A stretch of 24,000 nucleotides of DNA from Coxiellaceae bacterium. Lineage in GTDB: Bacteria; Pseudomonadota; Gammaproteobacteria; Coxiellales; Coxiellaceae. The stretch lies in contig CBDCAS010000022.1 in the NCBI GenBank assembly GCA_965214015.1, forward strand, positions 274,175 through 298,174, given 5' to 3'. The translations under genes and the position numbers were made by a program. Of this stretch, positions 1,032 through 19,534 are shown piece after piece. A model generated the notes under the pieces. It saw only the letters and a list, made by a program, of their open reading frames with translations. It was not told where the DNA came from and ran no database searches. Each line of letters starts with the position of its first letter. Position 1 is the stretch's first letter.

Positions 1032-1167
1032 AAATCTTTAGCGTTAGCCAAGAGAGTTTTTGTTTATAATTAATGAGATTATATAAAGTTTTGTAGGGCT
1101 TTTAAAAAGTATAAATACCTATGTTGAGATCACTTACGTGGTGGTGTAGACGATTTGAGGAGCATGG

Positions 1168-3438: not shown

Positions 3439-3513
3439 GCATACCTGCGCAGAAAGTGCCTGCCTTAGTTTCTTCTTTTCTCATGCCTGACTAATTTGAT
3501 ACACTGCCTCACC

Positions 3514-6330
3514 ATGACTGACTATAAAAATACCTTAAATCTACCGCAGACTGACTTTCCTATGAAAGCAGGTTTGGCGCAACGTGAGCCTAACACTTTG
3601 GCATTTTGGGAGCGTATGGGTCTTTATGATCGTCTACGCCAGCAAAGCCAAGGTCGGCCTCGTTTTATTCTTCATGATGGGCCGCCTTATGCTAACGGTC
3701 CGATCCATTTAGGCACCAGCCTTAATAAAATATTGAAAGATATTATTGTAAAATCAAAAACACTCAGTGGTTTTGATGCGCCTTTTGTACCAGGCTGGGA
3801 TTGTCATGGGTTACCGATTGAATTAAATGTTGAGAAGAAGATAGGGAGACCAGGTCAAAAAAAATCAGTCACTGAGTTTCGGCGTGCTTGTCGTCAGTTT
3901 GCAGGCTCACAAGTTAGGCGACAGTGTGAAGATTTTAAGCGTTTGGGTGTGGTGGCTGATTGGCAGCATCCTTATCTGACAATGGATTATGATTTTGAGG
4001 CTAATACCATCTGTGGCTTAGCTAAGATGATTGATAATGGCCACCTGCATCGAGGATACAAACCAGTGCATTGGTGTACTGATTGTAGATCGGCATTGGC
4101 AGAAGCAGAAGTAGAGTATCGTGATAAATCATCTTTAGCGATTGATGTCGCTTTTACAGCAGTTGATCCTGAGGCTTTATTATCCATTTTTCATTGTGAT
4201 AAAACCATTCAATCGATTGCTTTTCCTATATGGACCACTACTCCCTGGACCTTGCCAGCGAATGAGGCAGTGTCAGTGAATCCAATGCTAAACTATGCGT
4301 TAGTAGCGTGTAGATTAGAACAGCGCAAGCAGTGCTTAGTGATAGCAAGTGACTTGGTCGCTGATGTCATGAGCCGTTATGCAGTCTCTGATTATCAAGT
4401 ATTGGCCGAAATACAAGGTAACAAATTAGAATACGTGCCGTTGCAACATCCCTATCTAGATCGGGTAGTGCCGATTATTTTAGGAGATCATGTCACTACG
4501 GATACTGGTACTGGTAATGTCCATACCGCACCAGCGCATGGTCAGGAAGATTATGTAGTGGGTGAAGCTTATGAGCTGCCGATGAACAATCCGGTAAATG
4601 CGAATAGTTGCTTTGTTGAAGGAACGCCTTTAGTGGCTGGTTTACATGTGACACAAGCGAATGATCCTATTATCAAGAATTTGCGCGAATCAGGTCATCT
4701 TCTGCATCAAATGGTGCTTGAGCATGCTTATCCCCATTGTTGGCGTCATCAAACACCACTGATTTTTCGTGCGACACCACAATGGTTTATTTCGATGGAG
4801 CAAAAAGGTTTGCGTACCTTAGCATTAGCAGCCATTGATCATGTGTGTTGGATTCCAGAGTGGGGGAAAAAACGCATTCACAATATGATGGATTCACGTC
4901 CAGATTGGTGTATTTCACGACAACGTGCCTGGGGTATTCCAATTCCCTTGTTTGTGCATAAAGAAAGTGGTGCATTACATCCTCGCACCTTAGATCTTAT
5001 GTATAAAGCAGCTGATGTGGTGAGTCAAGGTGGTGTAGAAGCTTGGTTTGATCATGAGGCTTCCTATTTCATAGGAGATGAAGCCAATCAGTATGATAAA
5101 TCTACAGATGTATTGGATGTATGGTTTGATTCAGGACTCTCCCATACGGCGGTATTAGAGCACCGTCCTGAGTTATCAGTACCTGCTGATCTTTATTTAG
5201 AAGGCTCAGATCAGCATCGTGGTTGGTTTCAGACATCACTATTAACTTCTATTGCGATTCGTGATGTAGCTCCTTATAAAACTGTGTTAACCCATGGTTA
5301 TGTAGTTGATGGTCAAGGGTTGAAAATGTCCAAATCTGTAGGTAATACCGTGCTACCGAGTGAAGTGATTCAACAATATGGGGCTGATATTGTGCGTCTG
5401 TGGGTTGCCTCATCTTACTGTATCGATGATATTCGTTTTTCGCATGAAATTATAAAGCGAGTTGCTGATGGATATCGTCGTATTCGTAATACAGCTCGTT
5501 TCTTGCTGTCAAACTTATATGACTTCAATCCTGAAAAAGATCTCATTGCTATCCAAGACTTATTGGCACTTGATTTTTGGGCCATTCAAACAACTGTTGA
5601 TTTACAGAGGCGTATTTTAAAAGCCTATGAAGAGTATAATTTTCCCTCAATTTACCAAATGATCCATAATTTCTGTGCCGTAGAGATGGGTAGTTTTTAT
5701 CTAGATATTATTAAGGACCGGCAATATACCAGTAGGGCAGAAGGGCGAGCGCGACGTTCATCACAAACAGCACTCTATTATATTTTGGAGGCTTTAGTCC
5801 GTTGGTTAGCGCCCATTCTTAGTTTTACCAGTGAGGAGATTTGGCAACATATGTCGGGAGAGCGAATGGAGTCAGTCTTCTTATCCAGTTGGTTTGATGA
5901 GTTTCCAGCCTTAGCCCAGCGACCTTCCGATAATATAGATTGGGTGCAATTAATGCTTGTGCGCGATGAGATCAATAAAGTGCTAGAACAGCATCGGCAT
6001 CGTGGTGAGATTCGCTCAGCTCTCGATACGCAGGTTGTTTTATATGCTGATGGTGCTCTGTTTCAGCTATTAAGCACGCTTGGCGATGAATTGCGCTTTC
6101 TGCTCATTACCTCAGAAGCGCATGTAGCTGCTGTTCAAAATAAAACAACCTCAGCTGAGGCCACCGAAATACCAGATTTATTTGTTGATGTGCTTGTGTC
6201 GCATTGTGAAAAATGTCAGCGTTGTTGGCAGCGTCGACCTGATGTGGGTCAATCTAAACAGCATCCTACATTATGCCAGCGTTGTGAAGAGAATGTATGG
6301 GGTGTGGGGGAGCAACGAGAGTATGCGTAA
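3514..6330 (+). CDS. ileS: Isoleucine--tRNA ligase
   Basis: The N-terminus '[17 protein letters not shown]' matches E. coli 'MSDYKSTLNLPETGFPM'. 'PPYANG', 'KMSKS', '[10 protein letters not shown]' and the C-terminal Cys cluster 'CEKCQRCW...CQRC' are all present. The ATG at 3514 is preferred over the TTG at 3496 by homology. Confidence 0.95.
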
Positions 6331-6802
6331 AAATCAAAAAGCTTGGGTATGGTTGTGGGTCAGTGTGTTGATCCTTGTACTCGATCAAGGAGCTAAGATC
6401 ACGGTGGTTGCGCACATACCTTATGCTCAGCCTTATTTTGTGTTCCCTTTCTTGAACTTATACTTGCAATATAATTCAGGAGCTGCCTTTAGTATTTTAA
6501 ATAATGCAGGAGGTTGGCAGGTTATTTTATTCTCTATCATCTCTATCATTATGTCGCTTGTTATTTTGGTTTGGCTGATCAAAACACCACGAAGTGATAG
6601 ATTGCAAGCCCTAGCATTGAGTTTGATTTTAGGCGGTGCATTAGGTAATTTAATAGATCGTTTGTGCTGTGGTTATGTAATTGATTTTTTTGACTTCCAT
6701 TGGGGCCATTGGCATTTTGCGACTTTTAATGTGGCTGATCTAGCCATTACCTTAGGCGTTTGTTTTTTAATCATTCGATGGTTATTTTTTAAAGTTCGAT
6801 GA
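6323..6802 (+). CDS. lspA: Lipoprotein signal peptidase (signal peptidase II)
   Basis: 159 aa from the ATG at 6323, which overlaps the ileS stop as ATGCGTAA. It contains 'NSGAAFS' and 'FNVAD' motifs and four hydrophobic segments. The ORF-track start at 6182 would overlap ileS by about 150 nt. Confidence 0.9.
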
Positions 6803-7728
6803 AAGTGTTATTAGCGAATCCTCGTGGATTTTGTGCCGGTGTCGATCGCGCTATTGCCATTGTTGAGCGTGCCCTAGATCTTTTAGGGCCCCCAATTTAT
6901 GTGCGACATGAGGTGGTGCATAATCGGCTTGTGGTGGAACGTTTGAGCCGACAAGGTGTTGTCTTTACTGACTTTATTGAAGAGATTCCAGAATATGCAA
7001 CTGTTATTTTTAGTGCTCATGGCGTCTCAAAAGCGATACGTGATCAAGCTAATCAACGTCATCTTAGTGTTTTTGATGCGACATGCCCTTTAGTCACGAA
7101 AGTGCATATGGAGGTGGCACGTTGTGCCCGTTATGATATGGAATGTGTATTAATTGGGCATTTAGGGCATCCTGAGGTGGAAGGGACTATGGGTCAGTAC
7201 CATAGTAAAACAGCAGGGATCTATTTAGTAGAGACAGTAGAAGATGCTATAACGCTTAAGTTAAAAAACCCCAATCAATGTGCCTATGTTACCCAAACAA
7301 CACTATCAGTTGATGATGCACAGCAAGTTGTTAAAGCATTAAAGAGGCGTTTTCCAGCCATTCAAGGCCCTAAAAGAGATGATATCTGTTATGCAACCAC
7401 CAACCGTCAAGAAGCTGTCAAAACCTTAGCGATGCAATGTGATATAGTCATCGTTATTGGTTCGCAAGCCAGTTCCAATTCAAATCGTTTACAAGAATTA
7501 GCAGAGCGTTTAGGATGTCCTTCGTATTTAATTGATGAAGCAAGTGATCTGCAACATGCATGGTTGGATGGAAAAGAAGTGATCGGTGTGACTGCCGGTG
7601 CCTCTGCTCCGGAGAGCTTAGTACAAGAGCTTGTTCAACGTCTTCGTCAGTGGGGAGCAGATACGGTTGAAGAGTGTAGCGGTCGTGAGGAGTCGATTCT
7701 ATTTGCCTTACCTAGAGAACTGCGATAA
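6799..7728 (+). CDS. ispH: 4-hydroxy-3-methylbut-2-enyl diphosphate reductase IspH/LytB
   Basis: It has '[14 protein letters not shown]', '[11 protein letters not shown]' and '[11 protein letters not shown]', the three Fe-S Cys positions. A 4-nt ATGA overlap joins it to lspA. The ileS-lspA-ispH order matches other gammaproteobacteria. Confidence 0.95.
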
Positions 7729-7899: not shown

Positions 7900-7972
7900 G
7901 GGTCGTTAGCTCAGTCGGTAGAGCAGTTGGCTTTTAACCAATTGGTCGAAGGTTCGAATCCTTCACGACCCA
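7900..7972 (+). tRNA. tRNA-Lys (anticodon UUU)
   Basis: Cloverleaf folded by hand. Acceptor GGGTCGT pairs with ACGACCC. The D arm is GCTC-AGTCGGTA-GAGC. The anticodon arm is GTTGG-CTTTTAA-CCAAT, with TTT at positions 34-36. The variable loop is TGGTC and the T arm is GAAGG-TTCGAAT-CCTTC. The discriminator is A and CCA is not encoded. Confidence 0.9.
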
Positions 7973-8350
7973 AAACCATAAAAATCCGATAAAATCAATA
8001 AGTTAAAAAAGAATAAATCGTATACCAAAAAACGATGTTGGTCAGAAATAATTAAAAACACACTCTGAATATCCTAAAATTCGCTAGCATTACTGCTTAT
8101 GCTTATTTTTAAATCACAGAGGCTAAGGTTAAATGGAAGGTCTTTCATTATCCCAGATTGTCGCCAAATGATCCCTTGGTGATCCCACAGATTTGGGTAG
8201 ATTAGCTCAGAATCGTTTGCTTTCTGAGCACTCCAGTTTTCTATATTGTGCAATAATTGCTTGAACATAAGAAGATTGGTTAGGTGATGAAACATGCGCA
8301 TTTAGTGCTGGATTTTATTGAAGAGTCGGTGAGGCGGTTGGATTGAAGTA

Positions 8351-8380
8351 GGCTCTCTGTACAATCTGATACAGAGAGCC
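8351..8380. other. Perfect 11-bp stem / 8-nt loop hairpin (GGCTCTCTGTA-caatctga-TACAGAGAGCC)
   Basis: Read directly. It lies 15 nt past the stop of the minus-strand 39-aa ORF. There is no U-tract on either strand, so it is not a canonical intrinsic terminator. Confidence 0.5.
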
Positions 8381-8395
8381 CAACTGCTCTGCCTG

Positions 8396-8515
8396 CTATT
8401 TACATTTTTTAGGCAATTTAGCGGGTGTAGACCGCTTATGTGGTTTTACTGGTACCGTCTTTGGTCCTGGTTTTTTAGTCGTCCGAGTTGGACGACATTT
8501 CGTTTTAGTTGGCAT
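8396..8515 (-). CDS. Hypothetical 39-aa highly basic Lys/Pro/Thr-rich peptide
   Basis: It falls below the ORF-track length cutoff. ATG at 8515-8513 lies 4 nt after AAGGAGG (reverse complement of 8520-8526). Translation is MPTKTKCRPTRTTKKPGPKTVPVKPHKRSTPAKLPKKCK, with the stop at 8398-8396. I recognise no homology. Confidence 0.3.
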   Translation of the reverse strand: MPTKTKCRPTRTTKKPGPKTVPVKPHKRSTPAKLPKKCK

Positions 8516-8644
8516 GATGCCTCCTTAAACTTTTGTGGGCGCATTCCGGTATTGGGAAACTTTTGGTATGCTTCAGTTGCGAAATCGAAGCAATTCAAAA
8601 GAACCGTTACATGCGCCCGTTGCTATAACGGTTTTCCACTGTTG

Positions 8645-8673
8645 TTGAACTTTTTCGTTCGATATGGCATAAT
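8645..8673 (+). promoter_or_regulatory. Sigma70-like promoter TTGAAC-N17-CATAAT upstream of the XRE gene
   Basis: The -35 is at 8645-8650 and the -10 at 8668-8673, with a 17-nt spacer. It sits about 55 nt upstream of the ATG at 8731. Motif match only. Confidence 0.4.
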
Positions 8674-8730
8674 AACAATGCTTTATACTTTTGTAAAGAA
8701 CAGATTCGTTCAATATTTCGGTAAATATTT

Positions 8731-9051
8731 ATGGCTTCAACTCCATTGGGAACAAAAATTAAACAGCTTCGAAAGGCCAAGGGTTTTTCGCTAGAAGAGC
8801 TGGCCAGTCAAACTGGCATGAGTAAGAGTTACATTTGGGAGCTTGAAAACAGGCCTGCCAATCCCACCACAGAAAAGTTGAGTAAGCTTGCTGATGCGTT
8901 AGATGTAACCACTGCTTACCTTACAGAAAGCAGCAGTGAATTAACGAATGAGGTTTTACAAGAAGCTTTTTTTAGAAAGTTTAATCGGTTGATCGATGAA
9001 GACAAAAAGAAAATTGAGCAGATCATCGAGCTATGGGGTAAGAAAGAATGA
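8731..9051 (+). CDS. XRE-family helix-turn-helix transcriptional regulator
   Basis: 106 aa. It has a classic HTH_3 pattern: 'LGTKIKQLRKAKGFSLEELASQTGMSKSYIWELENRPANPTTEKLSKLADALDV'. A 4-nt ATGA overlap joins it to the next gene. Confidence 0.85.
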   Translation: MASTPLGTKIKQLRKAKGFSLEELASQTGMSKSYIWELENRPANPTTEKLSKLADALDVTTAYLTESSSELTNEVLQEAFFRKFNRLIDEDKKKIEQIIELWGKKE

Positions 9052-9920
9052 CTTTGCCAAACACACCAATAGCCTGGGCTGGTCGGTTGTCAATGATTCA
9101 CAAAACATTTTGTGTTGCTCATGCCATTGATCGTTTTCCATTAGATACTTCTACATTAGTACACGAATATTCAAAACAATTTTTCCCCAATGAGCCTATT
9201 ACAAAAGTGCAGGGTGAAAACTTTGGTGATCAATTTGAAGGTGCTTTAGTTCCTAACGATGATAAAAACGAATGGTTAGTTATTTACAACCAAGCAACTA
9301 AGAATGCTGGTCGTATTAATTTTACGATTGCCCATGAGTTTGGGCATTACCTTCTGCATAGACAAGATATCGTTATGCGAAAGCAGTGTACAAGGCATGA
9401 TATGTCTAGCTGGTATTCTAATGACAGTAATATTGAGATAGAAGCAAATACCTTTGCCGCTAGGTTTTTAATGCCTACAGAGGATTTTTTTAAACAAATT
9501 CACAGCCAAGAGATTTCTTTAAGTCTAATACAACAATTGGCTAATCGATATCAAGTATCATTAAACGCTTTAGTACTCCGGTTAATTAATATCATAAAAC
9601 AACCCGCTATGGTTGTGTCGACTGTTGATGGTTACATCAATTGGGCTTGGTCTAATGATCGGTTGATGAAGTTGGGTGTTTATTACCCTGCGAGACAAAA
9701 AACGATTGAACCTCCATCCAAATCATTAATCAATCGTGGAATTAATGGCACGATTGAATGTTTGCATAATGAGGGGGTTTGGATGGGTCCTGGTCAAGTC
9801 AAAGAAATTTTAGTTTACCACAAAGAAGAATTTTCATTGTCGTTGTTGCTTTACGATCCCAAGCTTAACAAAGACGATGTATGCAATGAATTAACTGAAA
9901 ATGAAGAGGAGTTCGCATAA
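9048..9920 (+). CDS. ImmA/IrrE-family (COG2856/DUF955) zinc metallopeptidase with an extra C-terminal domain of about 110 aa
   Basis: It has the HExxH motif 'FTIAHEFGHYLLH' followed by 'EANTFAARFLMP', the family's second signature. It is translationally coupled to the XRE gene. Residues from about 180 to 290 are unassigned. Confidence 0.85.
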   Translation: MTLPNTPIAWAGRLSMIHKTFCVAHAIDRFPLDTSTLVHEYSKQFFPNEPITKVQGENFGDQFEGALVPNDDKNEWLVIYNQATKNAGRINFTIAHEFGHYLLHRQDIVMRKQCTRHDMSSWYSNDSNIEIEANTFAARFLMPTEDFFKQIHSQEISLSLIQQLANRYQVSLNALVLRLINIIKQPAMVVSTVDGYINWAWSNDRLMKLGVYYPARQKTIEPPSKSLINRGINGTIECLHNEGVWMGPGQVKEILVYHKEEFSLSLLLYDPKLNKDDVCNELTENEEEFA

Positions 9921-10230
9921 ATAGCGATCAGATTAAAGAACTTGAAAAAAAATTATGGAATTCAGCCGATAATCTTCGTGCAAATTCCAAATTAACAGCG
10001 GCAGAATATAAAGATCCTATTCTAGACCTAATTTTATTATTTTATGTACTAAATGACAGGTCTGATTAATAATTGTTCAATTGAAAAACTTAATGGAGAA
10101 TAAGGATATTTGCGAAGCGGTTAATCAAGCCATGCTCAGGCTTAAAAAAATATAAAGATCTTGAGGAGGATTGTTGCCAAAAATTATCAATATAAATTTG
10201 TGAACAGTTACGCAGAAATTTTTAATTGGG
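9920..10230 (+). pseudogene. hsdM: Decayed 5' remnant of a type I restriction-modification methylase gene (hsdM, HsdM_N region only)
   Basis: There is no start codon. Positions 9920-10066 translate to NSDQIKELEKKLWNSADNLRANSKLTAAEYKDPILDLILLFYVLNDRSD*. That fits the HsdM N-terminal signature (..LW..AD.LRG....EYK...L.LIFLKY..). Positions 10093-10152 give MENKDICEAVNQAMLRLKKI*. With frame changes, '..KDL..' and 'AKNYQYKF' follow. These resemble the next conserved HsdM_N block as I remember it (..Am..IEkeN..LkgvlPknY..). No catalytic N6-methyltransferase domain follows. Confidence 0.55.
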
Positions 10231-10246
10231 AAATGGAACTTTACCA

Positions 10247-11770
10247 ATGGCGAAAAAACATAAATTATCAATCTATTTGCTTAAAGAAGAACTAAGCCCA
10301 GAAGATTGCTTAACAGAAGATACGGAAGTTTCCAATTTTGATAAGGTTAATAATTGGAAAATTATTATTAAAACAAAGCCTAAATATGAACCAGAATGGT
10401 CAAGTTATTTGGGCTTGAATATCAAACTAGTAAATGCAAGTGCTATTCTGTTTATTCTTTTTGATAAACGTTGGTTTGCTATAACATTTAATTATGCTCA
10501 TTACCTGCTTGATAAAAGTAAATTAATTACGGATTTTGGATTAATTACAGCTCTAAATATGCTTGATCCAAATAAAATAAAAAGTTCAGATGTTTTTGCT
10601 CCCTCCGATCACTCAAAGCAAAGAAGAACTCAGACGACACAATACTCTAATTTATATGGCCATGGTATGGATAGTTGTTCTAATATTCTAAAAAATATAA
10701 CAGGGAGAGTGCAAGATGAATATGAAAAATTATCTAAGAGTATTAGCGCAACACATAATAGTATAAAAATTAATACTACCTATCCAGTAGAACATTTAAA
10801 TAATCTTTGTAAAGATTTATTTGATATTTACTCTAAAAAAGATTACTGCAATAATTTTCCTGAAATATTTAATATTCAAGAGATCAAGGACATTTGTTTA
10901 ATTAATAAATTAAATGCTAAGCTGTTAAATTCTGTTAATAATAGAGAAGGTATATTTTATTTAGAAATACCTGAGTTAATTGATTTTCATCAAATTGATC
11001 ATTATCAAATTAATGTTAAAGATCATAAGCAACATAATTATGAAGAGATTTCTATATCAAATTTCTTTGAATCAATACAAGATAAAGTTAAAATTACAGT
11101 TGAAAATTTAAAAAAATGGCAGCTATTTATAATTGATCAAAGTGATAGAAAAATAAAATCTTTTTCAATTTTTGATTGCTTTGTATTCGATTGTGATATT
11201 GACAATGTTGAATTTCATTTATCACATGGAAAATGGTACTCTTTAAGTCATGATTTTTCTGAAGAACTTCAAAAAATAAATGAAAATAGGAAAGAAAAAA
11301 TTAATGGTGAAAAAATTCCAAACTTTAAATTTAATAATGAAGGTGAATATAATCAAGTGCTTGCTGATCATTTATCGGCACATTGCCTAGATAAACAATG
11401 TATTCCTATGGGAGGATACGATAAGATTGAGCCTTGTGATGTTTTATGTATTTCTCAAGACGATAAAAATATTTTTATCCATGTAAAAATTAAACATGGT
11501 GGATCATCAGGTTTAAGTCATTTATTTGAACAAGGCGATGTTTCTCTTATCCTGCTCAATAAAAAAGATCAAAAATTTATTAATGGCATCCGTAAAAAAG
11601 TTTCTAATTTTAATAGTGAAAACGTTAAAATTATCCATTATCTTATTATAGGTGATCCATTAAAAAAATTACCTCTATTCGCTAGAATTTGTCTTTTTAA
11701 ATATATAAAAAGTATTGAATCAAGAGGTGCAACTGTTTATTGGTCTATTGTTCCAAACCTAAGTAAATGA
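10247..11770 (+). CDS. TIGR04141/DUF6119-like 'sporadically distributed' protein with a C-terminal PD-(D/E)xK-like motif; function unknown
   Basis: 507 aa from the ATG at 10247; the ORF track begins at TTG 10226. It contains 'KLSIYLLKEE', 'WFAITFNYAHYLLD', 'DFGLITALNMLDPNKIKSSD' and the C-terminal 'IEPCDVLCIS..FIHVKIKHGGSSGLSHLFEQGDVS'. The family assignment is from memory of these motifs and is not a search result. The gene is extremely AT-rich. Confidence 0.8.
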   Translation: MAKKHKLSIYLLKEELSPEDCLTEDTEVSNFDKVNNWKIIIKTKPKYEPEWSSYLGLNIKLVNASAILFILFDKRWFAITFNYAHYLLDKSKLITDFGLITALNMLDPNKIKSSDVFAPSDHSKQRRTQTTQYSNLYGHGMDSCSNILKNITGRVQDEYEKLSKSISATHNSIKINTTYPVEHLNNLCKDLFDIYSKKDYCNNFPEIFNIQEIKDICLINKLNAKLLNSVNNREGIFYLEIPELIDFHQIDHYQINVKDHKQHNYEEISISNFFESIQDKVKITVENLKKWQLFIIDQSDRKIKSFSIFDCFVFDCDIDNVEFHLSHGKWYSLSHDFSEELQKINENRKEKINGEKIPNFKFNNEGEYNQVLADHLSAHCLDKQCIPMGGYDKIEPCDVLCISQDDKNIFIHVKIKHGGSSGLSHLFEQGDVSLILLNKKDQKFINGIRKKVSNFNSENVKIIHYLIIGDPLKKLPLFARICLFKYIKSIESRGATVYWSIVPNLSK

Positions 11771-11781
11771 GGAGTGCCTTA

Positions 11782-11919
11782 ATGCAAACATTTAACTTTA
11801 ATGAAGAATATCTATCACAAATTTCTAATTTAATTATAATTGACCAATATCTGAGTGCAATCTACAATATTCAACCAACCCATAAAAGTTATAACTTATT
11901 GATTTTGGTAGAAAATTAG
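11782..11919 (+). CDS. Hypothetical 45-aa ORF immediately downstream of the DUF6119-like gene
   Basis: The ATG lies 7 nt after GAGGAG (11769-11774) and 11 nt after the upstream stop. Translation is MQTFNFNEEYLSQISNLIIIDQYLSAIYNIQPTHKSYNLLILVEN. It may be a gene fragment. Confidence 0.3.
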   Translation: MQTFNFNEEYLSQISNLIIIDQYLSAIYNIQPTHKSYNLLILVEN

Positions 11920-12570
11920 TGAAAACTCAAAATTTAAACCCTTGTCACTGTGAATGCCCGCCTTATGATGCAAAAACACGCAGTGATAGAATAGGTAATT
12001 TACCGATTTTAAATAATTAATTTTTCAAATGACAACATATTTCACAAAATACCGCATGTCATGTAAGCGGTGAAAGGCGTAACGCCTTTGGCAATGAAGG
12101 CGATTATATTCGGATTGTCTGTTTACTGAAATTGTCATTTTCGGCAATATTTTTTTAAATATACGCTAAGTTCAGTGATAGCAATATCATTGGCTTTGTT
12201 TACCCTACCAAATATTAACTAACCACTATAAGTTAATGGTTATTATACTTTAAACGATTTCACTGCTATCTGAGCAATGCGCACATCAGATAACTTTAAC
12301 TATTCTTATTAACTTCGATATATCGAGTTAATGAAATTTTACTGTGAGCTATAAAGTTTACATCGTTTGATGCAACCAACTGGAAACAGATTAATAGTCT
12401 GGGTTTTACACCGAGATTATGAATAGGCTTACGGCCTTGGTTGTTAGGTTACGCCAAAGCAAGTTCTACTTGTCCGTTGATAAGCCTATCGGCTTATCGC
12501 GTGGTGTACCACCACTAAACAAGCACAAAAACGATAGTACAGTTCAAATTTTCAAAACAGCAAGCGCTTA

Positions 12571-12605
12571 GCGTCACGTTATGACAGAAATGTCTAACGT
12601 GACGC
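12571..12605. other. Long hairpin: 15-bp stem (one bulged T) with a GAAA tetraloop, about 80 nt upstream of the recombinase ORF
   Basis: GCGTCACGTTATGACA-GAAA-TGTCTAACGTGACGC, read directly. A second 6-bp hairpin, ACGCGC-AGA-GCGCGT at 12602-12616, overlaps its 3' arm. The two structures are therefore mutually exclusive. Confidence 0.5.
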
Positions 12606-12723
12606 GCAGAGCGCGTTATATAATAAATATTATGAATCAATAAGATAAACCACTTTTAAAGGACAAAATAACCATTACCATTCCGTGACAGTTTACAAAA
12701 CGACTTATTTATCGAGGTATAGT

Positions 12724-13602
12724 GTGAGTAAAAAACATCAAATGATTAGCTCAGTCATTACAACAATTAAAAATAACAAGGACGGCTCATATAGAACGCA
12801 GGACGATCGTCGGCATGCATTAATAAAAATTGCGAAAGATGTGCATGAGCTTGGATACAAGCTTGACCATATTCGTTATATGAAACCCAAGCATATTCAT
12901 GCTTTGGTGAAGTGCTGGAAATCTCATGGTGACAATCCAGGCAGCATGAAAAATCGCATGAGTCATTTACGATGGCTGATGTGCAAATTTGATGGAAAAA
13001 TTCACATGGTACCCAGCAATGATGAGCTAGATATTCCTAGACGAATCTATATCAGTAATCAGAATAAATCTGTACAGCTAACATCGGTAGATTTTGAGCG
13101 AATTAAAGATCCTATGATGTGCCATAGTTTGAAAGGTCAAACGTTGTTTGGGCTACGTATGGAAGAGAGTATTAAACTGGAACCTTTCATCGCAGATACT
13201 GGAGAGTTTCTGTATGTACAAAAGACGAAAGGGAATCGTGAACGGATGATCCCGATTTTAACTACCAAGCAGCGAGAATGGCTTGAAGCAGCAAAGCAGT
13301 TAGCTCAGCATAACAGCCATTCCCTCATCCCAGCGGATACCCACTATAAGACCTATCGCAGTCGTTTTGATAAGGCTTGTAAGCGGGCGGGTATTAACAG
13401 TCGACATGGTTTGCGGCACTGCTATGCGCAGTGCCGCTATAAAGAATTGACGGGTTGGGAACCACCGGTAAAAGGTGGCCCTAAATTGGCTGATATGAAT
13501 TCAGATCAAAAGTACTTGGATCGCGCTGCACGATTACAAGTGAGTCTGGAGTTGGGGCATAGTCGTCGGAATATACTAAGTGTCTATATTGGCACGACAT
13601 AA
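12724..13602 (+). CDS. Tyrosine recombinase / integrase (small, plasmid/island type)
   Basis: The catalytic pattern is R ('FGLRMEES'), H-x-x-R ('HGLRHCYAQ') and H...Y ('LGHSRRNILSVYIG'). The start is ambiguous: GTG 12724 lies 6 nt after GAGG, the ORF track uses GTG 12685, and an ATG at 12742 is also possible. Confidence 0.85.
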   Translation: MSKKHQMISSVITTIKNNKDGSYRTQDDRRHALIKIAKDVHELGYKLDHIRYMKPKHIHALVKCWKSHGDNPGSMKNRMSHLRWLMCKFDGKIHMVPSNDELDIPRRIYISNQNKSVQLTSVDFERIKDPMMCHSLKGQTLFGLRMEESIKLEPFIADTGEFLYVQKTKGNRERMIPILTTKQREWLEAAKQLAQHNSHSLIPADTHYKTYRSRFDKACKRAGINSRHGLRHCYAQCRYKELTGWEPPVKGGPKLADMNSDQKYLDRAARLQVSLELGHSRRNILSVYIGTT

Positions 13603-13615
13603 ATATGTCTTAACA

Positions 13616-13643
13616 TTGACCTAAAATATTAATATGATACAAT
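13616..13643 (+). promoter_or_regulatory. Sigma70-like promoter TTGACC-N16-TACAAT upstream of the excisionase-like gene
   Basis: The -35 is at 13616-13621 and the -10 at 13638-13643. A second ATTGACC copy sits at 13644-13650, and a 7-bp hairpin (CAGTAAG..CTTACTG) follows. Motif match only. Confidence 0.4.
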
Positions 13644-13697
13644 ATTGACCATTAACAGTAAGGACAACGATGCTTACTGATTGTAAGGTGCGAAGCT

Positions 13698-13910
13698 ATG
13701 AGCCATGAAAATAATATACAACAGTTTGATTTATTAACACAAAAAGAAGCAGCGACTATGATTCGCATGTCTGAAGCTTGGTTTGAGCGGCAACGCTGGG
13801 AGCACAAAGGGATACCTTATATTAAAATAGGGGGTCGTGTGTTTTATGAGAAAGAAGATCTAGTTAAGTGGGTTAAAAAGCAGAAAAGTAAGCCTAATAC
13901 TAAAAGTTGA
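13698..13910 (+). CDS. Excisionase/AlpA-like (MerR-superfamily HTH_17) DNA-binding protein
   Basis: 70 aa. 'LLTQKEAATMIRMSEAWFERQRWEHKGIPYIKIGGRVFYEKEDLVKWV' fits the excisionase-family HTH pattern (..kEaA..l.vs...l.r.r..g.gP.y.kiG.rv.Y...dl..W). It lies directly after the recombinase gene. Confidence 0.8.
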   Translation: MSHENNIQQFDLLTQKEAATMIRMSEAWFERQRWEHKGIPYIKIGGRVFYEKEDLVKWVKKQKSKPNTKS

Positions 13911-14234
13911 AACTGTTACAATGGTTGGTGCGTGTAAAGAGGGCATTGCTAAAATTCAGTAAGAGAGATGTATAGTCTCTAATTGGGTTAAAATACCTAT
14001 TTTCTAAATGCTTAAAGATTAAGCTTTTTTCAATTTTAGCTGAGAATCAAGCCTACTACCTTTAGATAGTAGTGTAGAGCGTTTGGATCAATAGAGTTGT
14101 TGTATTCACTAATTGTTGATTGAGTTAATATGAACATTGTAGTAGCTAATGAGTGAAATAATAGAGCAAAATATATTCAAAAAAACAATCTTCACCTTTG
14201 GTATTGGATGTATAGTTCAAAGAGGTAAATTTTG

Positions 14235-14960
14235 ATGAATAGAAGTTCTGAAAAAAAAGTTGCAGTCATCACTGGTGCTAGTGGAGGTATTGGTGAAGGA
14301 GTGGCACGTTATTTTCTTGAAAAAAATTATAAAACAATTTTGATTGGAAGGAATGTTAATCGAATAGAAAGTTTGAGCACAGAGTTTTCTGGAGAGAATG
14401 TGACAATATTGAGTTGTGATCTTAGAAATCATGAGGAAATAGTAAAAAATATAAATATAACTCTCGATGCGCAAGCTAGAGTTGATGTATTAGTTAACAG
14501 TGCAGGATATGTAAAGCGTGGTACTTCCGATCTTTCACATGAAGAATTTGTGAAAATGCTAGAAACTAATTTGGTTGGGTTATTTGATATCACTAATGCA
14601 GTTATTCCTATCATGAAGAAGCAGTCCGCTGGAAGAATTATTAATATATCTTCTTATTCAGGTGTTGTAGCAAGAGATTGTTTAGGTGGGTATGCGGCCT
14701 CTAAATTTGGCTTAATGGGTTTGAATGAATCTCTGCATAAAGAGTTAGCACCTTACGGTATTTATGTCACTGCTATTTGTCCTAACTTAGTAGATACAGA
14801 AATGACCAGGGATGTAACTTCAATTGAGCGAAGTGAGTTTATTCAAGTAGATGATATTGTGAAAACAATTAATTATCTTATGAATCTCACGCCTAGCGTT
14901 ATGGTAAAAGAGTTAGTTCTTAGATGTCGTGCGAAGTTGCTTAAAACAGTAGATGGGTAA
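14235..14960 (+). CDS. Short-chain dehydrogenase/reductase (classical SDR)
   Basis: It has 'TGASGGIG' (TGxxxGxG), 'NSAG' and the catalytic 'YAASK' (YxxxK). The ATG at 14235 lies 9 nt after AGAGG. Confidence 0.9.
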   Translation: MNRSSEKKVAVITGASGGIGEGVARYFLEKNYKTILIGRNVNRIESLSTEFSGENVTILSCDLRNHEEIVKNINITLDAQARVDVLVNSAGYVKRGTSDLSHEEFVKMLETNLVGLFDITNAVIPIMKKQSAGRIINISSYSGVVARDCLGGYAASKFGLMGLNESLHKELAPYGIYVTAICPNLVDTEMTRDVTSIERSEFIQVDDIVKTINYLMNLTPSVMVKELVLRCRAKLLKTVDG

Positions 14961-15407
14961 ATATTTAGATATGAATAAACTTCATAAATTATTTTCTGGA
15001 ATTATCGATTTTACTATTTTTTTATTCTTTATCTTAAGCTTTATACTTCTAATATAGAGTGACTGACTGCATAGGAAAATCAATTTATTCAATCAATAGA
15101 ATAGAAAATGATGACAGCTGATTAAGCTACTGAAAAATTTATTAACTTGAGGCAGCTTATGCAAAAAATAAAGATTTAATGAGTCATTTATCCATGAATA
15201 AATGTAACTCTTTATTTAAGAAAACTGTATCTAGTTATGATCTTATTTTAGTTTGATAGTCCTCTTATTGGGTTCAAACCCCCATTTTCCAGATGGTTTA
15301 AACACGTAAGACATGCGAAGCATGACATTGCAAACTTTAGTGCGCTAGCATATCCGGCTTACAGCCAAGATTTCCAACCCACCAACTTTTAGTTGGTGGT
15401 AGTTGAG

Positions 15408-15440
15408 TTAAGAGGATATTTTAGCTCCCTCTTAATTTTA
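15408..15440 (+). terminator. Terminator-like hairpin TTAAGAGG-(12 nt)-CCTCTTAA followed by TTTTA
   Basis: Read directly. It is preceded by a 9-bp hairpin, CCACCAACT-TTT-AGTTGGTGG, at 15379-15399. No intact upstream gene ends here. The loop is long and the stem AT-rich, hence the low confidence. Confidence 0.3.
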
Positions 15441-15454
15441 GTTATAATGAGCAT

Positions 15455-15760
15455 TTGAAAAAGCATCATGAAAAATTAAGTCCTAATACAGCATCTAGAA
15501 ATTTGAAAGTCTCTCTTAAGGAAGAAATCAAGGATTTGGGTTTTTCTTTAAATAAAGAAAGCTATTATTATGTCCCAAGTATTTTGCCATGTTATAAAAA
15601 GAAATATTATGAATATATGATAGAAACAAGTAAAATAATCGGTTGTGAGAAAAAAGTTTTGGATGATATTAACAATTGGTATGAGTTAACAAATGCTTTT
15701 GAACAGATAGGATTGTTCATAAATTACCACATAAGATCAGATGGAAAAAATAGATGTTAG
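15455..15760 (+). CDS. Hypothetical protein; possibly the detached N-terminal part of the downstream hydrolase
   Basis: It is a 101-codon ORF starting at a TTG with no SD. A TATAAT at 15443-15448 lies only 6 nt upstream, which makes this start doubtful. The C-terminus '..GLFINYHIRSDGKN' resembles the first beta-hairpin that normally precedes the GGPG motif of S33 hydrolases. Confidence 0.35.
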   Translation: MKKHHEKLSPNTASRNLKVSLKEEIKDLGFSLNKESYYYVPSILPCYKKKYYEYMIETSKIIGCEKKVLDDINNWYELTNAFEQIGLFINYHIRSDGKNRC

Positions 15761-16521
15761 ATGAACTGCAGTGGATAGTTGTGCCTGGAGGCCCAGGATT
15801 GTCAAATAGCTATTTAAGGTATGCTTTGGAAAAGATACCTATAGCGTGTAAGTTACATTTTTATGACGTGTATGGTTCTCCTGAATCTGATAATAAAAAT
15901 CCTAGCCTTAATGAAATGACTGATCAGATTGATCTTGTAGCTAATAAAAATAATCTAAGTGAATATGGTTTAATCACACACTCCTTTGGTAATTACCTTG
16001 TTATGAGAGCATTTCAAAAATCTAAAGGAAGTATTAAAGCAATTATTATGTTAAATCCTATTCCTTATGAATTTCATGCCTGGAAAGAAGCTTTATCTGG
16101 TATTATAAAAAGAGTTCCAGAAACTATTTTTAAGGAGATGATATCTTTATCAAGCTCTGATAAGCCTGATGCTGGAGTTAAGCTATTTCGTTTGATATTC
16201 CGTTACTATGTAGCAAATAGAGATTCAGATTTGCCAGTAGAAGTTCCTTTTGATAGTAATGTATGTAACACTATTGCGGGAAAAGTACCTAAATATAATG
16301 ATAAAGAGTTAGTTTCTTCAGCCTCTATTCCAATAGTAAGGATTGTTGGAGGTTCAGATCTTTTTTTTGATGATCATAAAATTTTGCTAGAAAGAACAAT
16401 TATCTTACCTAAAGTAGGACATTATCCGTTTTTTGGGGATCCAGACAGTTTTTACAAAGCTATAAGAAATGCAGGAGAATTGTTATGTCAGCAGATGGCA
16501 AAAATGACAAAAAAGTGCTGA
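15754..16521 (+). CDS. Alpha/beta hydrolase (S33 prolyl-aminopeptidase-like)
   Basis: The oxyanion motif 'VPGGPG' is only 10 residues from the N-terminus. The nucleophile elbow is 'THSFGN' and a C-terminal 'VGHYPFF' supplies the His. A 7-nt overlap joins it to the upstream ORF. Confidence 0.8.
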   Translation: MLDELQWIVVPGGPGLSNSYLRYALEKIPIACKLHFYDVYGSPESDNKNPSLNEMTDQIDLVANKNNLSEYGLITHSFGNYLVMRAFQKSKGSIKAIIMLNPIPYEFHAWKEALSGIIKRVPETIFKEMISLSSSDKPDAGVKLFRLIFRYYVANRDSDLPVEVPFDSNVCNTIAGKVPKYNDKELVSSASIPIVRIVGGSDLFFDDHKILLERTIILPKVGHYPFFGDPDSFYKAIRNAGELLCQQMAKMTKKC

Positions 16522-16706
16522 TAAGATTGCGTGATATTCGTAGATCCAAAGGTATGTCGCTTAATGCGTTGGCTGATGAGGTTATGGAAGTCATAGCCTT
16601 GATTGAAAATTTTGTTATTATTGATAACTCAGTGGAGGTAGATATGGAAAGTAAAGCAAGGTCTGACATCAAAAGGGAGTTAAAAGTTCTAACTGATGGT
16701 AGCTAA
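16485..16706 (+). CDS. Small (73 aa) XRE-like HTH protein, putative cluster-associated regulator
   Basis: The ATG lies 7 nt after AGGAG (16473-16477). 'LIRLRDIRRSKGMSLNALADEV..ALIEN' resembles the first two or three helices of HTH_3. It overlaps the hydrolase 3' end by 37 nt and the convergent methyltransferase 3' end by 18 nt. Confidence 0.4.
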   Translation: MSADGKNDKKVLIRLRDIRRSKGMSLNALADEVMEVIALIENFVIIDNSVEVDMESKARSDIKRELKVLTDGS

Positions 16707-17807
16707 AATTAATGCAGCATCACTGTGATGATTGTTAAAAAATACGGCGTGTGTTTTTTTATATCCAGTTAATTGCAATACAGTTTGCCAAGTATCAGCT
16801 GATATAAGTGGTGTAAATTTTCTCCAGTTATCATTAAACAACCACCATCCATGAGTTATACCCATGATTAAATTGTTCCAGCGACCGGTTGATGTAGTTT
16901 CTAAAAGACATAAGGTACCATTTTTTGATAATAACGTTTGTAGATTTTTAAGCGTTAATTCTAGATTTGGTGTGGCATGCACGATGTCTTGCCCAATGAT
17001 TATATCATATGAATTTGGAACTAAATTTTGCCCTAATGGCTCTCTTGTTACATCAAATTTGAAGCAATATAAATTACTAATTTGTTTTTTACTTCCATAA
17101 CGTTTCATGTCGATTACGAATCGCTTTGATAAGTCTGTGAAATGATATTTAAGGTTATGTGTAGGTTTGATATAGTCAAACAGTTGACGAGTAAAAAGAC
17201 CACGTCCACCACCTATCTCAAGAATTCGTAGAGGTATAGTATTGTTGATTTTTAATGTAGATTGTATGGCAATGTCTTGAATTATCGGCATTTCTGAGTA
17301 TGTATCTGTGTCTTGAGAGTAGAGTTTATCAAGAAAATTTGTATTGCCTGCGGGGAATAAAATACTAATAGATGGTACTGTTTCTGATAATGCTACTGGG
17401 TAATGATTGACACAGTGCTGGAGAAGTTCAAGTGTACCTTGGAACATCGGATAACTATTTTTCAAAGTTGCTATATCAATTGGTATTTTCTGGTTTGATT
17501 TGAATGTTAGAGAATTACTTTCAATCTTTATTAGGCCATCATCATTAAGAATTTTCAACATATACCTATAAAATTTGGTAAAATTGTTAGTAATGTTTAA
17601 TTTGTTTTTTAATGTATCAATGTTTATCTGTCGACTACAACCAGAAGAGAGCAGATAATTATAAACATAAGCAGCGCATAGCTGATTACACTTTTGAAAA
17701 AAATCGGGAAATTGTTTATCTAAATCAGGAACATTGCGATAAGTTGTTAAGTGAATATTTTCGGCGATATCCATGAAATAATGAAAGTTATTAGTTTCAG
17801 TACGCAT
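16689..17807 (-). CDS. Class I SAM-dependent methyltransferase (type 12-like, with an N-terminal helical domain)
   Basis: 372 aa. Motif I is 'RILEIGGGRGLFTRQL', followed by an acidic 'HFTDLS' post-I region. About 190 aa precede the Rossmann fold, as in natural-product methyltransferases. Confidence 0.85.
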   Translation of the reverse strand: MRTETNNFHYFMDIAENIHLTTYRNVPDLDKQFPDFFQKCNQLCAAYVYNYLLSSGCSRQINIDTLKNKLNITNNFTKFYRYMLKILNDDGLIKIESNSLTFKSNQKIPIDIATLKNSYPMFQGTLELLQHCVNHYPVALSETVPSISILFPAGNTNFLDKLYSQDTDTYSEMPIIQDIAIQSTLKINNTIPLRILEIGGGRGLFTRQLFDYIKPTHNLKYHFTDLSKRFVIDMKRYGSKKQISNLYCFKFDVTREPLGQNLVPNSYDIIIGQDIVHATPNLELTLKNLQTLLSKNGTLCLLETTSTGRWNNLIMGITHGWWLFNDNWRKFTPLISADTWQTVLQLTGYKKTHAVFFNNHHSDAALILATIS

Positions 17808-17816
17808 TAAATTTCT

Positions 17817-18791
17817 CTATAATTTGCTAGTTAACCTCATAACATCTTGGTGTTTGGGTCCTGGTAAACTATCTAAGTAGGCATTGATAGTATCGGTGAC
17901 GGCAGCTTCACAATCTCTGTATACCGGACTACCAGCACCTTTAAATAATTTATAAGTAAGTCTGTTACTTGGTATTGCACTTGCTGTTCGCTTAGCACTC
18001 GCAAGAGTATGAACGGGGTTTTGATCACCTGCCAAAACCAATATAGGACATTCTACATTAAGTAGATATGGCAAGAAGTTAAAGTAATTTAGCTCACGAT
18101 TATTAAAAATGTAAGCAACTTCAGGATTGGTGACACAATTGGTGATCATTTCTGGTTCATAAGGCTTGGTTGCACAATATGGGATACAGGTTCTAACATA
18201 CTCAGCATAGGTCTTAGCATTTGTATTAGAGAACATTTTTTTAGCAACAGAGCATACTTCAGTTACCCTAGTTTCATCATAGCCTTTGTCTCTGACCTTC
18301 TGTGCGAAGTGTTCTAATACTTCATCTAAATTAAATTGAGCATCGGTATCACAAAGAATTAGCCCACCAAGTTTACTTGGATATTGTGTGGCACAGGACA
18401 TTGCAACAAATCCACCAAACGAGACACCAGCTAAGATAGGTTGTTCAATTCCAAAAGCAGTAAAAAAAGTATGAACATCTTTACCCCATTGTTCTAATGT
18501 CCAGAGAGATTCATCACCATAGTCTCTAGTACCCTCTTTTTCATAGTAACTTCGGCCAGAACCTCGATGGTCAATAAATATAACTTGCAAAGGTAAACCA
18601 GATAGATTTTTAGTACTAAATTTAGACCAATAGGATTCATATAGTGTATGATCTACAACCCCTGGACCACCATGAAGAAATATTAAAGTGTGTTGCTTTG
18701 GATTAATTTTTTTATTTAATTCTTCTGTTGAACCATAGACTTTGTAAAATATTCTTATATCATTGGGAATTTCAAAATAATTAGTAAACAT
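17817..18791 (-). CDS. Alpha/beta hydrolase, prolyl aminopeptidase (S33) family
   Basis: 324 aa. It has 'LIFLHGGPG' and the nucleophile elbow 'GVSFGG'. GAGGATAG lies upstream of the ATG. It is 12 nt downstream of the transporter gene. Confidence 0.85.
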   Translation of the reverse strand: MFTNYFEIPNDIRIFYKVYGSTEELNKKINPKQHTLIFLHGGPGVVDHTLYESYWSKFSTKNLSGLPLQVIFIDHRGSGRSYYEKEGTRDYGDESLWTLEQWGKDVHTFFTAFGIEQPILAGVSFGGFVAMSCATQYPSKLGGLILCDTDAQFNLDEVLEHFAQKVRDKGYDETRVTEVCSVAKKMFSNTNAKTYAEYVRTCIPYCATKPYEPEMITNCVTNPEVAYIFNNRELNYFNFLPYLLNVECPILVLAGDQNPVHTLASAKRTASAIPSNRLTYKLFKGAGSPVYRDCEAAVTDTINAYLDSLPGPKHQDVMRLTSKL

Positions 18792-18803
18792 AACTACTAT
18801 CCT

Positions 18804-19514: not shown

Positions 19515-19534
19515 TACTCTATCCTCATTCTCAA

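Follow-up and report, generated by a model that had tools for sequence, protein, structure and literature searches.

What is a single intact gene doing among the remnants of a type I restriction-modification (R-M) operon? The question is raised by a 24,000-nt stretch of contig CBDCAS010000022.1 (positions 274,175 to 298,174; assembly GCA_965214015.1, Coxiellaceae bacterium), called here the window, in which an AT-rich gene of the DUF6119/TIGR04141 family lies between a stub of hsdM and a probable stub of hsdR. From the sequence comparisons and structural models described below, we put at about 0.55 the probability that this is an autonomous, horizontally mobile gene for a sensor-nuclease with a defence role against phages or plasmids. 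The protein would be a single three-domain chain, whose first ~350 residues would sense a cue or regulate and whose last ~155 residues would form a restriction-endonuclease-like domain with a metal-dependent phosphodiesterase site. The gene would spread as a low-G+C cassette, with a preference for the slot between hsdS and hsdR of type I operons, for other defence islands and for mobile elements.

A defence nuclease had been proposed in an initial annotation made from the sequence alone, and this idea survives the refuting conditions named there, supported by a full-length profile match, by the predicted order of fold elements and by the adjacency of homologues to defence genes. As a member of a known family the gene is ordinary; what appears new is to read that family as a candidate single-gene defence nuclease that recurs as a passenger in type I R-M operons and as a neighbour of the HXS system.

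An intact gene of the DUF6119/TIGR04141 family

The gene is located at positions 10247 to 11770 of the forward strand, where the initial annotation had pointed out a 507-residue open reading frame (ORF) of low G+C content. It comprises 507 codons plus a stop and has a G+C content of 26.3% (0.263), below the 0.420 of the core genes (495-7728) and the 0.362 of the remaining window. The ATG at 10247 gives the 507-residue protein and an alternative TTG at 10226 would give 514 residues; the ATG was taken as the start because the N-terminus MAKKHKLSIYLLK aligns with the N-termini of homologues. At the gene's own base composition, the random chance of 507 stop-free codons is about 6e-22. The peptides quoted at the outset were all found in the translation (KLSIYLLKEE, aa 6-15; DFGLITALNMLDPNKIKSSD, aa 96-115; YDKIEPCDVLCIS, aa 391-403; FIHVKIKHGGSSGLSHLFEQGDVS, aa 410-433). 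The spacer between CIS and FIH, previously given as 8 residues, was counted as 6 (QDDKNI).

Profile searches using hidden Markov models confirmed the family named in the initial annotation. The protein matched TIGR04141 (NCBIfam) with an E value of 4.8e-100 and 335.5 bits against a cut-off of 35 (aa 7-498 on positions 1-512 of the 516 in the profile), and DUF6119 of Pfam (PF19614) with an E value of 1.1e-107 and 361.3 bits against a cut-off of 27 (aa 7-499 on positions 1-520 of 524). Both scores are far above the curated cut-offs and both profiles are covered end to end. The protein also matched PHROG 18579, which has no assigned function (E 4e-22), and it retains all 24 invariant columns of a 35-sequence alignment of the family.

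When a 35-member profile was searched against 1.84 billion proteins, 5,014 representatives of 50%-identity clusters were found at E ≤ 1e-3 and 2,468 at E ≤ 1e-30. Among the best 150 of the 5,014 representatives, nearly all are 510-560 aa long and are matched in one stretch end to end. The family is moderately large, widespread and of fixed architecture. Members were found in Proteobacteria, Firmicutes, Spirochaetota, Bdellovibrionota, Thermodesulfobacteriota and Dadabacteria, as well as on plasmids and in one prophage. The exact protein of the window is recorded once, and its nearest relative is 52% identical.

None of the 5,027 models of PADLOC-DB v2.0.0 matched the window protein at E ≤ 0.01, and none of 35 diverse family members had a match better than E 0.01 in PADLOC v2. 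A family of ~5,000 clusters at 50% identity is in this way absent from PADLOC v2. Few papers name DUF6119, TIGR04141, PF19614 or "sporadically distributed protein", and none of them, judging by titles and abstracts, concerns defence; five protein accessions of the family were mentioned in no paper found. The family is also not listed in the available part of the supplements of a preprint on guilt by embedding. As the initial annotation stated, it has been without an assigned function, now for over a decade, and the literature search gave none.

The C-terminal domain and its invariant residues

The full-length structure was predicted with AlphaFold2 (AF2) from the 35-sequence alignment (model m51942a60dbad; predicted local distance difference test score, pLDDT, 89.5; predicted template modelling score, pTM, 0.81), and the model has three domains, all encoded on the forward strand. 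The N-terminal beta-rich domain (aa 1-180, 10247-10786) contains the invariant residues W51, F97, G98, N104, Q129 and G153, and the middle alpha/beta domain (aa 181-352, 10787-11302) contains invariant P242 and W330 (motif HxSxGxWY). Neither of these two domains has a fold that could be recognised, and a Foldseek search of the PDB gave nothing for them at E < 0.001. The N-terminal domain would form part of a sensor or regulatory half. The C-terminal nuclease-like domain (aa 353-507, 11303-11767) has the predicted order alpha-beta-beta-beta-alpha-beta-alpha-beta.

Modelled alone, the C-terminal domain reached a pLDDT of 95.3 and a pTM of 0.90 (model me89a2e0a0930), and the order of its secondary-structure elements is confidently predicted: helix 14-24, strand 35-38/41-43, strand 48-51, strand 56-64, helix 69-87, strand 109-118, helix 126-141 and strand 145-153. 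The core order alpha-beta-beta-beta-alpha-beta of restriction-endonuclease-like enzymes is thus present in the model, as an order of elements in a prediction and not as a superposition on a solved structure.

The polar invariant residues of the family concentrate in this domain, in which E365, Y368, D382, E395, C397, D398, H412, K414, S420, H425, L426, F427, Q429 and G430 are invariant in 35 homologues. Ten of these residues form the putative active site, encoded at 11339-11533: E365 (11339-11341), D382 (11390-11392), E395-P-C397-D398 (11429-11440), H412-V-K414 (11480-11488), S420, H425 and Q429 (11531-11533). In the domain model D398 stands at the start of beta-2 and H412-x-K414 lies in beta-3. 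The arrangement of D...(E/H)xK plus a downstream Gln, noticed at the outset in one protein, proved to be a D...HxK...Q that is invariant in the 35 homologues. All ten residues are unchanged in 16 proteins from independent context loci that share 23-52% identity, and nearly all the other invariant residues are unchanged as well. Invariance of ten polar residues at such identities argues for a catalytic site rather than a passive binding surface.

The structural comparisons of the C-terminal domain stayed below threshold. In the PDB, Foldseek ranked CdiA-CT best (4zqu_A; E 0.036, probability 0.84, template modelling (TM) scores 0.41/0.50), followed by XPF (2bgw_B, E 0.040), Hef (1j24, E 0.056) and the Avs4 nuclease (8dgf_B; E 0.077, probability 0.77); Zip2-Spo16 and the LCMV and SFTSV cap-snatching endonucleases were other weak matches. 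In BFVD the best E value was 1.2e-3, and the weak matches with names include T7-endonuclease-I-like, ERCC4, PDDEXK exonuclease, restriction endonuclease and MmcB-like proteins. Many of the named sub-threshold matches in the two libraries are PD-(D/E)xK nucleases, which points weakly, and below significance, to a nuclease. The domains most like ours in predicted structure, CdiA-CT (EC869/YPIII type) and XPF/Hef, are at the same time distant from it, with matches below significance at 9-15% identity and root-mean-square deviations of 6-8 A, and belong to unrelated larger proteins.

Permissive Pfam scans of the C-terminal domain of 26 members and of the full length of 35 members recovered only DUF6119 repeatedly, with single stray matches to RE_endonuc (0.03, Pfam) and, in PADLOC, to Cas4c (0.03). 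No Walker A, HKD (HKD/PLD) or HNH motif was found in the window protein by a motif check, and readings of the HVK region as an HKD/PLD, HNH or P-loop motif were rejected for this reason.

The proposed division of labour may be likened to that of Shedu SduA (DUF4263), in which an N-terminal sensing or regulating region is joined to a C-terminal effector with a restriction-endonuclease fold, and to that of Avs4, which likewise would correspond as a sensor with a C-terminal nuclease and whose nuclease is among the weak matches. Unlike a relative of either, DUF6119 has no detectable sequence similarity to them; its N-terminal half is conserved and uniform, not swapped, and its motif is D...HxK with an invariant Cys, in contrast to D...(D/E)xK.

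Autonomous passenger or partner of type I systems

The genomic contexts of homologues were compared at 26 independent loci from plasmids, a phage record, genomes, metagenomes and Escherichia coli, a census that includes the four genome loci, three metagenome loci and one viral locus found by a scan with a 20-sequence family alignment. At three loci (L006 from Mesorhizobium, L007 from Mameliella and the metagenomic L010) an intact type I operon carries the DUF6119 gene between its hsdS and hsdR, and the stop of the gene overlaps or abuts the next start. The L010 protein, 52% identical to that of the window, is the closest relative with a known context. The gene adjoins a type I system at three more loci (L005, L008 and L014), and the other 20 of the 26 have no type I R-M genes within 7-10 kb. 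The neighbourhood check that accompanied the initial annotation thus came out in favour of enrichment: homologues adjoin R-M and defence genes more often than by chance, the 6 of 26 linked to type I systems giving a binomial P of 2e-7 at a background of 1% and of 1.5e-3 at 5%, both backgrounds being estimated and not measured.

Other defence genes also occur beside family members. SIR2 and AbiEi are found at one locus and AbiEi/AbiEii at another; an OLD-like ATPase, a TIR protein with a deaminase, and an Mrr_cat-methyltransferase fusion are each found at separate loci; and one further locus has SMODS, ThsB-TIR, RhuM and a methyltransferase near the DUF6119 gene. Mobile contexts are frequent: several loci contain conjugation genes or conjugative elements, 13 of 26 plasmid records with a DUF6119 gene are conjugative, and a Pseudomonas prophage carries the gene in a moron position, with an integrase gene on either side.

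Of 5,426 complete E. coli genomes, 61 carry the gene at an identity of at least 99%, and there it begins 18 nt past hxsA of the hxsDBCA operon. A 2026 paper established HXS as an antiphage system of four genes (PMC13128918) and does not mention the downstream TIGR04141 gene. The E. coli island is located at tRNA-Arg, with an AAA/RloB pair nearby (L034 10585-15608, E. coli AR_0128; also L018-L020). The orthologue WP_000694697, which follows HXS, makes the family testable in a native species. The ten invariant residues of the putative site, the confident model of the nuclease-like domain that holds them and the repeated embedding between hsdS and hsdR make the family a testable candidate. Should it prove protective, it would be a new one-gene system whose two sensor domains are of unrecognised fold and whose site, D...HxK, is non-canonical.

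The hsdS-hsdR slot is known to hold embedded defence genes, namely PrrC (PMC12707154), TgvAB (PMC11411939) and DarTG2 (PMC12255303), and the report on DarTG2 names it as a potential recombination hotspot for defence systems (PMC12255303). Guilt by embedding has yielded validated systems (10.1101/2024.01.29.577857). TgvAB/BrxU (GmrSD-like type IV) and DarTG2, which share the slot with DUF6119, act independently of the surrounding R-M system and complement it (PMC11411939, PMC12255303). They differ from DUF6119 in being DUF262/DUF1524 nucleases and an ADP-ribosyltransferase with a macrodomain, respectively, and in having known phenotypes, where DUF6119 has none.

The idea of a hotspot fits a comparison of L006 with L007. 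Both are alphaproteobacterial plasmids. HsdM is 85% identical between the two operons, HsdR 79% and SprT 72%, whereas the embedded DUF6119 proteins (L006 7995-9662, L007 7986-9659) are 32% identical and the hsdS genes are unrelated; alleles of 32% identity thus sit within operons of 79-85% identity. This points to an operon centre, hsdS plus DUF6119, that has been exchanged as a cassette or has diversified very fast. The G+C content of the DUF6119 gene is below that of its flanks at 20 of 22 loci (for the embedded copy of L010, 0.297 against 0.465). The 20 copies without nearby type I genes keep the full architecture and every invariant residue. We favour an autonomous mobile cassette because of these 20 of 26 loci without type I R-M, the low G+C in 20 of 22 and the divergent centre of L006 and L007. 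In addition, the copy in the window has stayed intact after the loss of hsdM, hsdS and hsdR, which argues against a nuclease restrained only by an R-M complex. The analysis shows the family membership, the intact ORF, the conserved motif, the hsdM stub, the embedding and adjacency of homologues and, as a confident prediction, the order of secondary-structure elements; nuclease activity, a role in defence, a sensor role for the N-terminal half and autonomy from the R-M enzyme are what we infer.

Several findings weigh against this conclusion. The canonical Asp...(D/E)-x-K signature is not present: D398 and K414 are in the expected strands, but the middle residue is the invariant H412. Neither the full model nor the domain model gave a Foldseek match in the PDB at E < 0.001, and by sequence phmmer with the protein returned only noise from the PDB and hmmsearch with the C-terminal profile no match at E ≤ 10. 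Comparison with an alignment of the HsdR nuclease domain (HSDR_N) by hhalign gave a single alignment, EPCDV...FIHVK over RPDIV...VIECK, in which PCD falls on RPD, with Asp on Asp, and HVK on ExK, but with His in place of Glu and at a probability of 1.9% (P 0.026). This register alone is no evidence of homology and was not used as such. The sample of 26 loci is small, is skewed to plasmids and metagenome-assembled genomes (MAGs) and has no matched background, and no recognisable defence neighbour was found at L021, L025 and L013. The literature search found no experiment on any DUF6119 member and no phenotype of one.

Two further points concern the copy in the window. The weak promoter proposed for it, TTGTGA-N17-TTTAAT, does occur at 10198-10226 on the forward strand, but it is indistinguishable from chance: a consensus scan of 8300-12700 found 17 promoter-like sites, compared with 22.2 +/- 4.5 in shuffled sequences, and the site at 10198-10226 fails the -10 hexamer rule of that scan. 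It was rejected as a signal, which leaves for expression of the gene only a promoter-like site at chance level. Selection on the copy is not measurable because its nearest relative is only 52% identical.

The earlier description of the C-terminus as PD-(D/E)xK-like therefore stands for the order of fold elements and for the strand positions of Asp and Lys, and it fails for the acidic residue, replaced by His; the fold matches lie below significance. The structure check proposed with it (AlphaFold and Foldseek) gave the alpha-beta-beta-beta-alpha-beta order and weak nuclease matches, none of them significant. Beside H412 there are an invariant C397 and a second invariant histidine, H425. E365/E395 could, together with His and Cys, make up a variant site, though this is unproven, and the presence of His and Cys hints at a form of the PD-(D/E)xK site that uses a transition metal (Zn/Mn-type). 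The invariant C-terminal residues would form a metal-dependent phosphodiesterase site. That the domain works like a restriction-endonuclease-fold phosphodiesterase is a well-motivated inference from the models, one that stops short of demonstrated membership of the PD-(D/E)xK group.

A functional coupling to the R-M enzyme stays alive because of the stop/start overlap, the variation of DUF6119 together with hsdS and the relatedness of the linked systems. In all four embedded or remnant cases (L006, L007, L010 and the window) the DUF6119 gene ends in a stop that overlaps the start of hsdR or directly abuts it, and five of the six linked systems are from related type I families (HsdM identities of 57-67% among L006, L010 and L014, and of 35-38% to L008), the sixth, L005, being an unrelated EcoAI-type system. 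On these sequence features, DUF6119 could be a type I partner of a new kind and more than a hitch-hiker. It would form with hsdS a fast-swapping centre of the operon, be expressed in coupling with HsdR and use a Cys/His variant of the site, triggered by the condition of the R-M complex or by whatever the complex recognises, with the stand-alone copies rewired to other triggers. We hold this to be unlikely, if worth keeping in view.

A separate explanation is a guardian like PrrC, silenced by HsdMSR and freed as a suicide nuclease when an anti-restriction protein of a phage (Ocr, ArdA or Stp type) disables the complex; the copy in the window would then be a disarmed or partnerless leftover. In the type Ic R-M locus EcoprrI, PrrC is likewise encoded by one accessory gene in the hsdS-hsdR slot; it combines a regulatory N-terminal part with a C-terminal nuclease and serves as a second line of defence (PMC12707154). 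The overlap or abutment of stop and hsdR start at L006, L007, L010 and in the window suggests expression coupled to that of HsdR, and the relatedness of five of the six linked systems and the position of DUF6119 with hsdS as a hypervariable centre between conserved hsdM and hsdR (L006 against L007) also speak for it. Against this stand the 20 of 26 loci that keep the architecture and all invariant residues without type I R-M, the copy of L005 that adjoins an unrelated EcoAI-type system, and the low G+C within operons of higher G+C, which argues for an imported cassette. A nuclease restrained by the R-M complex alone should moreover kill the cell after deletion of hsdM, hsdS and hsdR, yet the window gene is intact.

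DUF6119 also has no sequence or domain relation to PrrC, an ABC-type NTPase with an RNase that cuts tRNA-Lys: an NTPase domain or Walker A motif as in PrrC was not found, and Pfam, NCBIfam and PADLOC gave only DUF6119/TIGR04141 and no PrrC/RloC anticodon nuclease. PrrC is almost always embedded, according to a figure legend of the preprint (10.1101/2024.01.29.577857, Fig. 6C), whereas DUF6119 is mostly stand-alone (20/26). We consider such a guardian improbable. If the family did depend on R-M, it would be the second R-M-coupled nuclease after PrrC.

The mobile contexts allow another explanation, in which the protein would serve the element that carries it, by exclusion of or competition with rivals, as an addiction nuclease acting after segregation, or as a recombination or processing nuclease of an element of the serine-recombinase/ParB type. 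The gene is frequent on conjugative plasmids (13 of the 26 plasmid records) and on integrative elements, the Pseudomonas prophage copy lies between two integrase genes, a trio of a serine recombinase and two ParB/RepB proteins recurs in E. coli and Rhizobium, and the family is sporadic in distribution and low in G+C. However, no conserved antitoxin-like or immunity partner was found, the immediate neighbours varying from locus to locus, and embedding in R-M operons together with adjacency to HXS, SMODS/TIR and Abi genes suits cargo defence genes better. Since defence genes too are typically carried by mobile elements, this explanation overlaps with that of an autonomous defence nuclease and does not exclude it; taken by itself it seems to us rather improbable.

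The poorest prospect is that the gene is an inert relic of a decayed island with no present function, or that its C-terminal domain is a non-catalytic nucleic-acid-binding module: the surroundings are decayed (hsdM and hsdR stubs, no hsdS, nothing recognisable from the tRNA to capH), the promoter signal is not significant, no nuclease fold match is significant and a histidine replaces the canonical acidic residue, but a 1.5-kb ORF at 26% G+C would not have stayed open unless it is under selection or its neighbours decayed very recently (P ~6e-22 for a random sequence), all invariant residues are kept, and ten invariant polar residues at 23-52% identity are the signature of a catalytic site.

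The islet and its neighbours

Directly after the stop of the upstream capP gene, and in a different frame, lies the hsdM remnant (hsdM', 9917-10066, forward strand). It comprises 50 codons (INSDQIKELEKKLWNSADNLRANSKLTAAEYKDPILDLILLFY...) with no start codon and two stops at its end, and it matched HsdM_N with an E value of 1.6e-5 and 26.0 bits against a gathering score of 24.5. From its sequence it is an N-terminal stub of a type I methyltransferase subunit. On the other side of the DUF6119 gene, a 50-codon ORF (11767-11919, forward strand) overlaps the DUF6119 stop as ATGA, and its first ~19 codons (MRSALMQTFNFNEEYLSQI) resemble the N-terminus of HsdR. A tblastn search with the HsdR N-terminus of L010 (MTSFPHNEKYLSQIPALQLL) placed it at 11782-11841, weakly, with 50% identity over 20 aa and an E value of 0.8; the ORF, which is too short for it, had no Pfam match. 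An hsdR stub is the likeliest reading because position, ATGA overlap and register fit, and we regard the ORF as a probable hsdR'. The small partner gene suspected in the initial annotation was given up in favour of this stub.

The gene in the window is thus flanked by hsd pieces, one of which passes the HsdM_N gathering score and the other of which is only probable, and hsdS is absent. The earlier suggestion that it occupies the slot of a destroyed type I system holds to the extent of these two pieces, and it can be made sharper, as genes of this type are carried inside such operons. The ancestral arrangement here would have been hsdM-(hsdS)-DUF6119-hsdR, in a small island beside tRNA-Lys, and deletions would have removed nearly all of hsdM, all of hsdS and nearly all of hsdR, with the DUF6119 gene as the sole intact survivor. 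On this account the locus, in a Coxiellaceae-like gammaproteobacterium, would be a case in which an embedded passenger outlives the restriction system that carried it.

Further upstream are two genes of the switch type that the initial annotation had called XRE/ImmA. The first (8731-9051, forward strand) encodes a CapH-like repressor of the XRE family with a helix-turn-helix (HTH) domain (PADLOC capH, E 1.2e-28; Pfam HTH_3, E 1.4e-15), and the second (9048-9920, forward strand) a CapP-like ImmA/IrrE (M78) metallopeptidase (PADLOC capP, E 7.9e-57, positions 4-241 of 242 in the profile; Peptidase_M78, E 2.8e-18). The capP start overlaps capH by 4 nt. The pair is therefore present as had been claimed, but its control of the DUF6119 gene is unproven. 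Plasmid homologues of the pair face a divergent operon that they presumably control, which is CBASS in Rhizobium and a multiubiquitin/ThiF operon on two Rhodobacterales plasmids. In the window the DUF6119 gene is instead located downstream in the same orientation, behind the hsdM stub, and in the divergent position the ~750 nt from the tRNA to capH (7973-8730) contain no recognisable gene, only short ORFs without a Pfam match. CapH/CapP as the switch of the DUF6119 gene was rejected as unproven; control by read-through is possible and nothing supports it. Most plausibly the pair is, like the DUF6119 gene, a defence component that has been left orphaned in the islet.

The tRNA itself, tRNA-Lys(UUU), was located by ARAGORN at 7900-7972 on the forward strand, in agreement with the tRNA that had been placed beside the gene. 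It marks the boundary between the core genes and the variable region, with a shift in composition. The core genes upstream are rppH (NUDIX hydrolase)-ptsP-ileS-lspA-ispH, with a G+C content of 42.0% over the reference interval 495-7728. At the far side of the islet there are a tyrosine-recombinase-like integrase gene (12685-13602, forward strand; Phage_int_SAM_2, E 3e-13; Integrase_1, E 4.8e-8) and an HTH_17 excisionase-like gene (13698-13910, forward strand; Pfam HTH_17, E 9.7e-9).

No convincing repeat of the tRNA 3' end was found at the island ends. A 15-nt AT-rich direct repeat, AATCAATAAG(T/A)TAAA, is present at 7993-8007, 21 nt past tRNA-Lys, and at 12635-12649, just upstream of the integrase gene. 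It brackets a 4.6-kb islet with capH, capP, hsdM', the DUF6119 gene and hsdR', and it may be either a remnant of att sites or a product of chance. An intact version of the islet was not found elsewhere, as blastn of 8000-13700 against plasmids gave only fragments of 60-100 nt and no contig came up in a look-up of the exact protein.

The source is a gammaproteobacterial lineage without close sequenced relatives. The DUF6119 protein, IspH (6799-7728) and CapP (9048-9920) are each the sole member of their own 90%-identity cluster. The nearest IspH proteins are ~75% identical (74-75%, from uncultured Coxiellaceae-like Gammaproteobacteria), and the best named one, from a Coxiellaceae MAG, is 74% identical.

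Some gene sets recur near DUF6119 at the context loci. The serine recombinase and two ParB/RepB-like proteins adjoin it in E. coli and on a Rhizobium plasmid (L005 10652-14059; L018 2543-5878; L034 16108-19299), and this trio may be the mobility module of an element with DUF6119 as cargo. A TrlF/OLD-like AAA ATPase, a hypothetical protein, a TauD-like dioxygenase and a GIY-YIG nuclease recur at two unrelated loci (L009 14597-17551; L011 1-3331 and 10866-11501), where they may form another uncharacterised defence cluster. A RhuM-family gene occurs at the loci of two nearest homologues: in L010 (4920-5978) the type I operon itself carries it, between hsdM and hsdS, and in L040 (7898-8947) it is directly upstream of the DUF6119 gene in an island with SMODS/TIR. 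Two copies of the family (L001 and L002) are ~230 kb apart on one 2.57-Mb chromosome of a Bdellovibrionales MAG (OZ241865.1); both are 47-48% identical to the window protein and neither is near type I R-M genes.

Beyond the excisionase-like gene, positions 14232-23770 of the window contain a secondary-metabolite-like cluster of low G+C content (0.30-0.33), with genes for a short-chain dehydrogenase, two alpha/beta hydrolases, a methyltransferase and a Vut_1 transporter. The same cluster encodes a 1,411-aa hybrid enzyme with AMP-binding, FkbM methyltransferase, carrier protein, ketosynthase and thioesterase domains.

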